Shown: piece after piece, positions 40,398-54,090 of the stretch | How the letters are laid out: every line of letters begins with the position of its first letter | Numbering within the stretch: position 1 is the stretch's first letter | IMG/VR virus record: IMGVR_UViG_3300013901_000006 | Span: 15,774 to 79,773 of that record | Origin: a virus | Taxonomy: Duplodnaviria > Heunggongvirae > Uroviricota > Caudoviricetes | DNA length: 64,000 nt | Strand: one strand, 5' to 3' | The notes under the pieces: generated by a model | Seen by the model: only the letters and a program-made list of their open reading frames with translations | What the model was told of the DNA's origin: nothing | The model's database searches: none | Program-made: the position numbers and the translations under genes

Positions 40398-41930
40398 ATG
40401 GCTAAAGGCAATCCAAATGATTCTACGATGAAAAATAATTTCGTAGCCAAGGTATATGACCCAACATTAGAGACTTATAGGCCGATTTATGTTGCGCCAG
40501 ATGCTACCAACAACAAGCGTGGCGAAGTCTGGCTCTCAGACGCAACTAGTGCGACAGATAGTGCGGCTACTGGCGTAGTTGCTGCTACGCCTAAAGCAGT
40601 AAAAGCTGTAAATGATAATGCAAATAATAAACTTGATAGAACAACAACCACGGCGCAAACAGTGGCTTCTGCAACAACTTTTGCTGGTAAAGTAACTGGT
40701 AATGGTGGTTTCGCTGGAAATCTAACAGGTAATGTTACTGGTAACGCCGATACTGCTACAAAGCTAAAAACAGCCCGCTCAATTAGTGTTAAAGCAGGTA
40801 ACAACGGTGGTGCTGGTAGCGCAAATTTTGATGGCTCTGGAAATGTTTCTATTACCATTCCTTCAATCGATGCAACGGCTGTGACCGGTACTTTGCCGTT
40901 ATCAGCTATTCCGCAAGGGGCATTAGAGCGCATGGTTACGGTAACAGATAGAGCCGCACGTTTAAAATTGACAGCATCGCAAGTTCAGCTTGGAGATACT
41001 GTTAAGCAATCCGATACAGGTGTCCTTTATATTGTTGTTGACGAATCTAAATTAAATCAAGATGCTGGTTATCAAGAATACAAAGCTGGTACGGCGCTTG
41101 AAGCAAACCATGCGGCGAATGCAGATAATGCAACTAATGCAACAACTGCTTCAAAGGTTGGACATACATTATCTATTACCAATATATACGGCACAACGAG
41201 CGCACAGAGAAAACAAACTGTTACTTTTAATGGTTCTGCGGATGCATCATTGAGTATTGATACAGTACAGCCAGAAGCAATGAAGGGCGCTACATCATCT
41301 GTCGCAGGAGCCAAAGGTCTTGTTCCGCAACCAGCAGCAGGAGATAATACTAAGTTCTTGCGCGGTGACGGTACGTGGCAGGTAGCTGGTGAAGTCACTG
41401 GTGTTAAGGGTGATGCGGAAACTACATACCGCAAAGGCAATGTTAATCTTACTTGTGCCAATATCGGGGCTGCTGCTGCGAATCATAATCACGATAGCTC
41501 ATATTTAAAGCTATCTGGCGGCGCACTGACTGGAACATTAACCTCTCGTTCAATCACACCGAGTGCCAATAATTCTTACTCTCTTGGCACATCAAACAAT
41601 AAATGGAATTATGTATATGCAACTAGCTTTGTTGGTAATCTTACTGGTAATGTTGAGGGCAACGCAACTAGTGCAACGAATGCCCAGTCCGCCAATAAAT
41701 TTAATAATACTGTCGCTTTGAGTGGTGATGTAACAACATCTGCCACTAGTTTCAATACTGCAAGTGCTATCACTATGTCCACCACTATTGGAAATGGTAA
41801 AGTAACATCTGCAAAAATTGCGGATAAAGCTGTTACAAATAGTAAAATTGCAGATGACGTTGGTACTGTTTACGTCGGCGCTTCTGAGCCTACAGAAGAA
41901 CATGTCAAAATCTGGGTTAAAATTGTTTAG
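40398..41930 (+). CDS. Tail fibre protein A
   Basis: Thr/Ala/Gly-rich fibre motifs (NADTATKLKTARSISV, GLVPQPAAG..KFLRGDGTW); C-terminal EPTEEHVKIWVKIV. Confidence 0.7.
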   Translation: MAKGNPNDSTMKNNFVAKVYDPTLETYRPIYVAPDATNNKRGEVWLSDATSATDSAATGVVAATPKAVKAVNDNANNKLDRTTTTAQTVASATTFAGKVTGNGGFAGNLTGNVTGNADTATKLKTARSISVKAGNNGGAGSANFDGSGNVSITIPSIDATAVTGTLPLSAIPQGALERMVTVTDRAARLKLTASQVQLGDTVKQSDTGVLYIVVDESKLNQDAGYQEYKAGTALEANHAANADNATNATTASKVGHTLSITNIYGTTSAQRKQTVTFNGSADASLSIDTVQPEAMKGATSSVAGAKGLVPQPAAGDNTKFLRGDGTWQVAGEVTGVKGDAETTYRKGNVNLTCANIGAAAANHNHDSSYLKLSGGALTGTLTSRSITPSANNSYSLGTSNNKWNYVYATSFVGNLTGNVEGNATSATNAQSANKFNNTVALSGDVTTSATSFNTASAITMSTTIGNGKVTSAKIADKAVTNSKIADDVGTVYVGASEPTEEHVKIWVKIV

Positions 41931-41943
41931 AAAGGAATCTATA

Positions 41944-42015
41944 ATGTTACATTGCATTCTCTTGGGGGGGGGGGCTTGCGCCCCGCTAAATAATTTAGCT
42001 GATATTTGTGGCTGA
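41944..42015 (+). CDS. Poly-G leader peptide L1 (G11 at 41964-41974), currently coupled to the GTG at 42008
   Basis: AAAGGA SD; reads MLHCILLGGGACAPLNNLADICG*. TGA 42013-42015 overlaps GTG 42008. Confidence 0.7.
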   Translation: MLHCILLGGGACAPLNNLADICG

Positions 42016-42436
42016 ATTATATGCTTCAAATGGTACTGAATTTACAAAGCTACCTATTATGACAGCGGAGACAACCACTGACACAGAATATAATAATCAT
42101 TTTGCTACTGGTTTTTATTCCGTTAGAGGTGTTCCATCAACTAATGGAACAAGCAACGTCCCTTTCGGTCAATGGGGAAGTGTCTTATCTGATAATTCAA
42201 TTGGAACTCCTTGGCAAATTGCTATACCCGATGGCGCTAATAATTTATATATATATAAACGTGCTCAATCAAGTAACACTTGGTCAAAAATGAGTGCGGG
42301 GTATGCCGACAGCGCTGGAACAGCAACTAGTGCGAATCATGCCACGTCTGCTGGAAGTGCTGATAATGAGTATTCTATTATGGTTCAAGATACTCAGCCA
42401 ACAGATTCAAGATGTAAATTATGGATTCAACCTTAA
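42008..42436 (+). CDS. Short fibre extension module
   Basis: 142 aa, GTG start with no SD, C-terminal QPTDSRCKLWIQP. Confidence 0.65.
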   Translation: MAELYASNGTEFTKLPIMTAETTTDTEYNNHFATGFYSVRGVPSTNGTSNVPFGQWGSVLSDNSIGTPWQIAIPDGANNLYIYKRAQSSNTWSKMSAGYADSAGTATSANHATSAGSADNEYSIMVQDTQPTDSRCKLWIQP

Positions 42437-42452
42437 AATAATATAAAATAAA

Positions 42453-42536
42453 ATGTCTATGGGGGGGGGCATAGTATTTCACCTCTCCTCTCTAGAAAGG
42501 AGTCAATACTATGCCAAAAGCGTATTATCCAGTTAA
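42453..42536 (+). CDS. Poly-G leader peptide L2 (G9 at 42461-42469)
   Basis: MSMGGGIVFHLSSLERSQYYAKSVLSS* crosses the CTCCT/AGGAG SD hairpin. There is no SD for the leader itself. Confidence 0.5.
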   Translation: MSMGGGIVFHLSSLERSQYYAKSVLSS

Positions 42537-52587: not shown

Positions 52588-52594
52588 GTGTAAA

Positions 52595-52642
52595 ATGATA
52601 ATATGGAATTATACCCTTCTGGGGGGCATGGTGTGCCAATGA
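52595..52642 (+). CDS. Poly-G leader peptide L3 (G6 at 52621-52626)
   Basis: AGGTG SD; reads MIIWNYTLLGGMVCQ*. With G5/G8 the stop overlaps TTG 52648 (TTGGCTAA). Confidence 0.6.
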   Translation: MIIWNYTLLGGMVCQ

Positions 52643-52647
52643 TGTAA

Positions 52648-53735
52648 TTGGCTAAAGCATATTACCCAGTAAATGGTTCATATAAAGAGTGGACTCCTGA
52701 TATGGTAGGAGCTTTAGGAAGTAAAAACACTAATGGCTATCAAGGGATAACAAAGCCAGATGGTTCAGATAACGACTGGATTAGGGCTACGCAGCTAGGA
52801 ATTATACCTTATAATTCAGGAACAATTTCTGCTCTTGGAACAAGTAGCTGGCAGTTCAGAGAAGCATATATTAAGACTGTAAACGGTAACTTAAACGGTA
52901 CAGCAAGTAGTGCCAATGTTCTTAGTCCAAAAGAATATTATGTAGAGAAGAGTACTGCTAATATAATGTATTATAAGTTGGGTAGTGTTACATGCAATAG
53001 TACATACGAAAGAATTAACGAAACTTATCTTTGTGTATCAAGACAAAGTGCTTGTATTATGAATTTATCAGTATATTCTAGAAATAGTAAAATATTCGTT
53101 GCTCCTACAGTTTCTTATACCTTTTTAACACAAAACGCAAAGAGTGCTTTTTATGATATTTTTATGCCGGTTTAGACAAAAAAACAGAAGGTAATACTTT
53201 TTCTATCTGGGCTAAACGAAGTCAATGGTCAGAATCAATGAAGTTAATACCACTTGGTAGTAACTATGATATGGGGTTTGCTATTTCTTGGACAAATTGG
53301 GATACATCGACAGCAGGGCAGACTGCTGTTCCGTCATTTGGCGAGTCTGCTGCGTATAATTTTATAGTAAGCCCACATACCCATACTAAGTCAGAGGTTG
53401 GCCTTGGTAATGTTGATAATACCACAGATTCTGCCAAGAGCGTAAAATACGCAACTAGTGCGGGTTCCGCGAATTCTGTTGCATGGGGTAATGTGAGTGG
53501 TAAACCTTCTACATACACTCCAAGTTCACATACTCATGATGATAGATATTATACTGAGAGTGAAATAAATACTAAATTAAATGGCAAGGCCAATTCTAGT
53601 CACACTCACGATGACCGCTACTATACTGAAAGTGAAATGAATACAAAACTCAATGCCAAAGCGGCAAGCGATATAATAACTGTTTCATCTACGCAACCCA
53701 CCAGTAATACTTGTAAAATATGGATTAAAATTTAA
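52648..53735 (+). pseudogene. Fibre extension module split by a 1-nt frameshift at T5 (53159-53163)
   Basis: The N-terminal MAKAYYPVNGSYKEW ORF stops at 53175. The other frame is open from 53157 and ends in QPTSNTCKIWIKI. One extra T joins them. Confidence 0.7.
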
Positions 53736-53760
53736 TAATTGAATATTTAAATAACGTTTC

Positions 53761-54090
53761 ATGGGGCTTATGGCTCTCTCCCTTTCGTTCGAAGGGAGAT
53801 ATATTTTGGCAAGAGCTTACTACCCCGTTGATGGAGAATATAAGCCATGGACTGCCGATATGGTTGGTGCGGCCGCAAGTGATCATACTCATACCAAGGC
53901 ATCTATTGGTTTAGGCAATGTTGATAACACGTCTGATTCATCTAAAAGCGTAAAGTATGCGGCAAGTGCTGGTAGTGCAAATTCTGCTAGTTATGCTACT
54001 AAATCTGGTAGCGCTGATAATGAATATAGTATCGCTGTGCAATCAGCTCAACCTACAGATTCAAGATGCAAGCTGTGGATAAAAATTTAA
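53761..54090 (+). CDS. Short fibre extension module (probable start TTG 53806)
   Basis: (M)ARAYYPVDGEYKPW...QPTDSRCKLWIKI. The SD AAGGGAG is buried in a 9-bp hairpin. Confidence 0.65.
   Translation: MGLMALSLSFEGRYILARAYYPVDGEYKPWTADMVGAAASDHTHTKASIGLGNVDNTSDSSKSVKYAASAGSANSASYATKSGSADNEYSIAVQSAQPTDSRCKLWIKI

Follow-up and report, generated by a model that had tools for sequence, protein, structure and literature searches.

How a phage might assemble its fibres from several separately encoded proteins that share their ends and little else is the question raised by a locus in the IMG/VR virus record IMGVR_UViG_3300013901_000006 (Caudoviricetes), which is 145,027 bp long and approximately 94% complete. 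The window analysed here is a 64,000-nucleotide part of that record (positions 15,774 to 79,773), and coordinates refer to the window unless another record is named. Its region 40398-54090 consists of two runs of fibre genes, both on the plus strand, in each of which a main fibre gene is followed by smaller genes that we call add-ons. An earlier note, made from the letters alone, had interpreted the shared protein ends as two halves of a single small beta domain, rebuilt between polypeptides by strand complementation, and had suggested that this would allow plug-in, phase-variable fibre extensions. The second part of this interpretation is supported in that such extensions fit motifs that are terminal and adjacent, conservation at the protein level, purifying selection, optional add-ons and variable poly-G tracts. 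The first part is not supported: comparison with a hidden Markov model (HMM) of the domain and with hhalign is negative, and no fused homologue was found in IMG/VR or in metagenome records. We tentatively propose that the add-ons are optional distal fibre segments under the control of poly-G tracts, and that their N-terminal hairpin docks on the C-terminal element of the preceding fibre protein.

Results

Terminal motifs of the fibre proteins

The first run comprises main fibre 1 (40398..41930, 510 residues), add-on 1a (42008..42436, 142 residues) and add-on 1b (42511..43770, 419 residues), and the second comprises main fibre 2 (49723..52587, 954 residues), add-on 2a (52648..53735) and add-on 2b (53806..54090, 94 residues from a TTG start), all on the plus strand; the layout of one big fibre with two add-on modules behind it is found twice in the window, as had been read from it before. 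The six products said to end in a common motif all do so (open reading frames, or ORFs, 40398-41930, 42008-42436, 42511-43770, 49723-52587, 53238-53735 and 53761-54090). This C-motif has the form (S/T)xx(Q/E)P-x4-(C/V)K(I/L)W(I/V)-x2-3-stop, with QP-x4-CK(I/L)WIK(I/V) as its consensus once relatives are included, and lies at 41886-41927 in main fibre 1, as an EPTEEH variant, at 42395-42433 in add-on 1a, 43729-43767 in add-on 1b, 52546-52584 in main fibre 2, 53694-53732 in add-on 2a and 54049-54087 in add-on 2b. Three products (ORFs 42511, 52648 and 53761) begin, again as described, with an N-motif of the form M-(A/P)-(K/R)-AYYPV(N/D)G.YK.W followed by T(P/A)DMVGA, which across copies reads (K/R)AYYP..G.(Y/F)K.WTPDMVGA and occupies 42517-42576, 52654-52713 and 53812-53871.

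Both motifs stand out when all ORFs of the 145-kb genome (55,128 positions) are scanned with position-specific scoring matrices (PSSMs): the three N-motifs score 58-66 against at most 25 for all else, and the six C-motifs score 39-58, with 39.2 for the EPTEEH variant. The similar end noticed in a small tail protein of 85 residues (31073..31330, plus strand) proves weak but real; it is a weaker, internal-type C-motif (QP-x4-VGIWID) that ranks seventh of all positions (24.4) and stops 5 residues before the stop codon, with no N-motif behind the gene. The divergent start of add-on 1a, AELYASNG, had been grouped with the N-motifs and is not above noise by PSSM. N-motif-like starts in ORFs 40398, 31347 and 42008 were rejected as not exceeding the proteome background.

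Two of the add-ons required their gene limits to be redrawn. ORFs 52648-53175 and 53238-53735 are one gene, add-on 2a, split by a 1-nucleotide difference in a run of T at approximately 53158, where the window has T5 and a 98.6%-identical relative (L099) has T6 and an intact gene of 362 residues; the split could be a real on/off homopolymer mutation or an assembly error. In L099 (8390-9478), where add-on 2a is intact, it is the third add-on that is broken instead (78 residues). ORF 53761 most likely starts with a TTG at position 53806, which a strong GAAGGGAG Shine-Dalgarno sequence precedes, and the resulting add-on 2b is little beyond the two motifs joined by generic fibre repeats.

Searches of Pfam and PHROGs match the fibre proteins to generic fibre repeats only, namely PF03406 in main fibre 1 (Phage_fiber_2, E 2.9e-8) and PF22337 in ORFs 42511 and 49723 (E ~1e-8; a Phage_fiber_rpt match in add-on 1b); PHROG tail-fibre families are also matched, main fibre 1 included, and the proteins thus belong to curated fibre repeat families. 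The GenBank phage collection holds no deposited relative, by DNA or by baseplate protein. In most add-ons an HxH motif (SHTH, SHSH or DHTH) directly follows the N-motif, as at 42577-42600 and 53872-53890 of the window. HxH motifs in gp37 and gp12 of T4 coordinate metal ions on the trimer axis.

Position, pairing and optional carriage in relatives

Relatives were found by back-translated motif scans of IMG/VR and a metagenome collection (241 million records), and loci around homologues of ORF 42511 were collected as well. The carriers are contigs of approximately 80-148 kb, mostly from human-gut samples, several of them with terminal repeats and 100% estimated completeness; in species-representative genomes a search for prophage or host copies gave only chance matches. 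The C-motif occurs in some 60 distinct DNA contexts, in each of them 2-3 codons before a stop, the few apparent internal matches being chance matches in junk frames (L140, for example), and the N-motif occurs in some 45, in each of them 1-3 codons after the start of an ORF. At the protein level each N-motif starts at residue 3, and each lies 66-110 nucleotides downstream of the stop of a C-motif gene. Both motifs are present in all 13 uninterrupted add-ons (64-419 residues) irrespective of the middle; in an alignment of add-ons (A1) residues 1-22 are nearly invariant and the centres unrelated, and Pfam and PHROG searches of the add-ons recognise fibre repeats and no other anchoring domain.

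Between close relatives the add-ons are present or absent as whole units. Add-on 1a has an identical copy in L005. The shortest, a 64-residue mini add-on in L093 (1811-2005), is little beyond an N-motif joined to a C-motif and looks like a deletion derivative from recombination between fibre repeats. Five related records, of which three are at least 90% complete and one is 100% complete with terminal repeats, have C-motif fibres and no N-motif gene, by protein search or by a loose DNA pattern, the positive controls being matched four times out of four with E ~1e-11. The C-terminal end is kept in these five relatives and therefore works alone. An end of the main fibre 1 type has no add-on behind it in 14 relative contexts, and all C-subtypes seen ahead of an add-on are found at chain ends too. 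Within the main-fibre-2 family, all 23 contexts with a terminal V have an add-on, against 3 of the 7 with a terminal I, a weak hint of co-variation (Fisher p ~0.001, with shared ancestry not corrected for).

The motifs are conserved at the protein level. In the C-motif, 35 DNA versions together use 4 codons for the invariant P, 2 for C, 2 for K and 7 for the I/L position, and over all pairs of N-motifs 429 synonymous codon differences stand against 159 non-synonymous ones. Whole add-ons show a ratio of non-synonymous to synonymous substitution rates (dN/dS) of 0.10-0.34 between diverged relatives, that is, purifying selection. As the codons vary while the residues stay, the motifs are not mere DNA boxes for recombination.

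Poly-G tracts ahead of the add-on genes

The 145-kb genome has six tracts of at least eight G, all of them on the coding strand within window positions 41964-55769. Counting a G6 at 52621, G tracts lie at 41964, 42461, 52621, 54207, 54755, 55320 and 55769, most of them within short leader ORFs whose ends meet or overlap the start codon that follows, and the equivalent sites in relatives hold G5-G11; long tracts are confined to this locus and polymorphic in length between close relatives. On the plus strand, the spacer behind main fibre 1 (41931..42007) has a G11 tract in a short leader ORF whose end overlaps the GTG start of add-on 1a, that behind add-on 1a (42437..42510) combines a G9 tract (relatives have G9-G11) with a hairpin sequestering the Shine-Dalgarno sequence, and that behind main fibre 2 (52588..52647) has the G6 tract (G7-G10 in relatives) in a leader ORF that ends directly before the TTG start of add-on 2a. 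A terminator-like hairpin 3' of add-on 1b marks the end of the first chain.

A pyrimidine-rich stretch stands before each G tract, C and a small hairpin come after it, and Shine-Dalgarno-sequestering hairpins precede the starts at 42511, 53806 and 54294. The leader peptide ahead of ORF 52648 (52604-52647) reads ..ELYPSGG.., like the form ..AYYPSGG.. that the N-motif takes in relatives, and may be a degenerate duplicate of an add-on 5' end; the other leaders are unlike it. Fusion of the genes by stop-codon recoding or read-through was rejected: the stops mix TAG and TAA, most junctions change frame and the single in-frame junction has three stops.

Comparison of the motifs with the small beta domain

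The intact domain has the pattern P..G..GKIY...DT.K.YRWSG..Y..I and is widespread; a fragment of ORF 49723, which has one intact canonical copy at approximately residues 455-483, matches 12,740 cluster representatives (E<=0.001), often with several copies in one protein. By eye the C-motif aligns without gaps to the first strand of this domain and the N-motif to strand 2, turn and strand 3, with the break in the DT turn. An HMM built from 405 instances of the domain nevertheless gives the 17 real joined C- and N-terminal junctions approximately -1 bit, equal to swapped, shuffled and 3000 random-termini controls, and hhalign assigns the profile of each half a 0.2% probability against the domain alignment and places the N-motif on the FP..G lead-in, not on the second half. 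Run against 150 canonical domains, the C-half PSSM fits a single register (z 3.7) and the N-half PSSM fits two equally well, with z 3.0 on the second half and z 3.1 on the lead-in; this test is partly circular, because the regular expression that defines the domain fixes the matching residues. In the phage proteome the N-half PSSM ranks the second halves of intact domains 7th and 12th of the 55,128 positions, and it also finds three C-halves, which share P-x5-K-x-W with it. The similarity between motifs and domain is, on this sequence comparison, short and not unique, and the regular expression itself accounts for part of it.

Relatives with both halves fused in one ORF, a prediction of the split domain, were found neither in IMG/VR nor in metagenome contigs, and 120 long fibre proteins contain no internal N-motif. 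Several candidates were rejected as fused forms. Long proteins that share the add-on N-terminus do so only through a common fibre repeat, HxH...GLGNVDNT...YATSAGSA. A fibre of L127 resembles a fused form by eye, with alignment z of 0.9-4.3 that is not consistently above shuffles and with no relatives from which to build a profile. In P0211 and P0273 only the C-half part is significant.

Inside these last two proteins the C-half does have a clear homologue (z 7-12, higher than every shuffle), and the copy in P0273 is almost the same as the end of main fibre 1 (z 9.7). At the point where the split form stops, their chain goes on into a turn and one more strand; this continuation is not N-half-like, because 3-94% of background windows score as well. 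The C-motif thus resembles an element that breaks off directly behind its strand, and the N-motif as the missing piece is unsupported by these sequence comparisons. In both proteins (P0211, 1200-1260; P0273, 43-110) the C-element is contiguous and leads into ..YSVPTY.E.T.G.. and a hairpin motif, AGT.GQVLTS.GNGG..W; both carry YadA-head-like repeats (PF05658), and theirs are the only internal C-element homologues found.

Structure models and neighbouring genes

An AlphaFold model of the 94-residue add-on 2b, made with an alignment of 14 modules, has a mean predicted local distance difference test score (pLDDT) of 47 and leaves the N-motif unpaired with the C-terminal end; the N-motif is predicted as a hairpin of its own (residues 5-8 with 11-14, pLDDT ~66). 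A read-through of the only in-frame junction, with the stops read as residues, gives pLDDT 37 and no pairing of N- and C-terminal parts. Both models are monomers of proteins that are surely trimeric, and therefore neither support nor refute docking. Solved structures offered no informative match by sequence or by profile, and the ESM Atlas returned only unnamed viral clusters at 0.90.

Around the two runs lie further fibre and tip genes. ORFs 45752, 47428, 49018 and 49723 have in common a different N-terminal motif, KF..G....Y.....D..G.IYF..D. In ORF 45752 it corresponds to a Pfam family of 26 residues, 'Phage tail tip domain' (PF24243), and it may be the anchor of the main fibres. Four stand-alone Gp10_C-like tip genes (128-157 residues) with nearly identical N-terminal ends occupy window positions 54294-56301, and more follow further downstream. 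In fused relatives the Gp10_C-like domain stands behind ordinary fibre sequence. Such tip proteins, which start ...IYPVGSIY, were considered as partners of the C-motif and rejected, the sequence preceding them in fibre-fused forms not being C-motif-like.

Discussion

Our reading of the locus, which we regard as plausible while holding it tentatively, is that the add-on products would be fibre segments in their own right, probably trimers, which a virion may have or lack. The initiator methionine would be removed (residue 2 is always A, P or T), and the N-terminal beta-hairpin would dock on the C-terminal beta element of the preceding fibre protein, extending or re-tipping the fibre with a new central binding domain. 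In favour of this stand the terminal position of both motifs in all copies, the place of every N-motif gene behind a C-motif gene, the presence of both motifs in each uninterrupted add-on, selection on the protein, add-ons whose only recognisable domains are fibre repeats, the smallest add-ons with little besides the two motifs and a linker, the predicted hairpin and the co-variation in the main-fibre-2 family. The C-element is a competent fibre end alone, and is therefore better seen as a universal end-piece that accepts an add-on than as an unfinished half domain. Several points weigh against docking. The contact between N- and C-terminal ends is proposed from sequence and gene order; the single-chain AlphaFold proxies have no N-C pairing, at low confidence; and five relatives keep the C-motif without any N-motif gene. 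The same N-subtype follows different C-subtypes, so that there is no lock-and-key pairing of the T2/T6 style. Add-ons carry both ends and could self-polymerise, nothing in the sequence preventing it, and the adjacency of the genes may simply reflect a cassette origin. A broader form of the proposal, possible in our view if doubtful, takes the ends as a universal head-to-tail connector, in which any add-on hairpin would plug into the C-element of any segment, add-ons included, so that poly-G switching would yield combinatorial fibres of varied length and tip.

Some of these points also serve the main contrary view, in which the C-element stands by itself as a fibre end needed by every segment, whether as a cap or as a nucleus for trimerisation or folding, and the N-motif attaches elsewhere, to the baseplate, the shaft or another adaptor, the two being neighbours in the genome and not in the particle. 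Phage fibres have established C-terminal folding nuclei, such as the foldon of T4 fibritin, and here the C-motif is kept where N-motif genes are missing and stands on every chain-terminal module, the N-motif is predicted as a self-contained hairpin, and subtypes do not pair. We nonetheless think this unlikely: no alternative docking partner is evident, N-motif genes never occur away from a C-motif gene, and add-ons of 64-94 residues would have no obvious purpose if attached elsewhere. The predicted hairpin serves equally the strict split domain, in which the strand of the C-motif and strands 2-3 of the N-motif rebuild the small beta domain by strand complementation. The gapless alignment by eye with its break in the DT turn, the single register of the C-half, the fit of the N-half to the second half of the domain, the high ranks of intact-domain second halves in the N-half scan and the turn and strand with which P0211 and P0273 continue exactly at the split point all speak for it. 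Yet the HMM and hhalign comparisons are negative, the N-half fits the second half of the domain no better than it fits the lead-in or the C-half, some circularity affects the PSSM test, what follows the C-half in P0211 and P0273 does not resemble the N-half, no searched collection contains the fused form, and the C-motif is stable without a partner in phages that lack the N-motif; we consider the strict split improbable.

Recombination would give the shared ends a different origin altogether, mainly as footprints of cassettes whose stop-spacer-gene units are moved by tandem duplication and by homologous recombination at the end-coding repeats, with no role in docking. Close relatives differ by the gain or loss of entire add-on units, the 64-residue deletion derivative in L093 joins N-terminal end directly to C-terminal end, and the same terminator-proximal sequence lies behind whichever module is last. 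It is the wide difference in motif codons over fixed residues that makes this account very improbable, as it places selection on the protein and not on DNA identity; moreover, the N-motif would have no role in such recombination and is yet the most conserved part of the add-ons.

If the ends dock as we propose, an abundant clade of human-gut phages (~140-147 kb) would build its receptor-binding fibres from optional segments through two very short, nearly universal connectors, with poly-G tracts switching the segments on and off. Such a system would be a compact set of natural tools for varying the host range, and would offer an easy way to graft foreign binding domains onto a fibre. Were the connector universal, two motifs of approximately 20 residues would make a natural plug-and-play system. 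If there is no docking, the locus would hold a conserved fibre end-piece and a conserved N-terminal anchor, which is ordinary for phage receptor-binding proteins.

Among known systems, the proposed end-to-end docking would resemble by analogy the binding of gp38 to gp37 and the serial fibre of T4, where gp36 joins gp37. In T-even phages the long tail fibres are joined end to end from gp34, gp35, gp36 and gp37, and in phages of the T2/T6 type the adhesin gp38 sits on the tip of gp37, attached through its N-terminal domain (PMC3157838). The locus shares with this system a fibre made from several gene products encoded in order, and, with T2/T6 gp38, a small product, here putatively at the distal end of the fibre, that is conserved in its N-terminal part and variable elsewhere and whose gene lies directly behind a fibre gene, an adjacency seen in all copies; the conserved C-terminus of the partner has its parallel in gp37. 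It differs in that Pfam and PHROG match no gp38, gp37 or T4 fibre family, in that every add-on repeats the acceptor motif at its own C-terminal end and is in principle stackable, in the one-to-one pairing of subtypes that is found in T2/T6 and not here, and in expression behind poly-G leaders, the binding itself being putative here.

Branched receptor-binding-protein complexes with N-terminal anchor domains are known from the tailspikes of CBA120 and from gp63.1 and gp66 of G7C. They have in common with the add-ons a conserved N-terminal anchor, interchangeable receptor-binding bodies and genes in a row, but their anchors are folded domains of at least about 100 residues that bind side-on to dedicated adaptors, whereas here a hairpin of 20 residues would meet a putative C-terminal acceptor of 13-20 residues. 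The small beta-hairpin fibre domain, which we take to be foldon-like, is linked to the motifs by a short pattern similarity and by its one intact copy in ORF 49723, but the link goes unrecognised in HMM and profile-profile comparison and the register of the N-half is ambiguous. In chaperone-usher pili a terminal strand completes the fold of the next subunit by donor-strand complementation and so produces head-to-tail polymers, a mechanism analogous to the split-domain proposal; the fold and the system are different, and a pilin that lacks the donated strand is unstable, whereas the C-terminal end described here exists without a partner in related phages.

A parallel for the switch comes from Campylobacter phages, whose receptor-binding genes are reported to contain hypermutable poly-G tracts (Sorensen et al. 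2021, doi 10.1016/j.celrep.2021.109214, as cited in PMC12823448). The two cases are alike in G tracts that are confined to the receptor-binding region and variable in length between relatives, and they differ in placement, most tracts of the present locus lying in short leader ORFs upstream of the add-on genes and not inside them.

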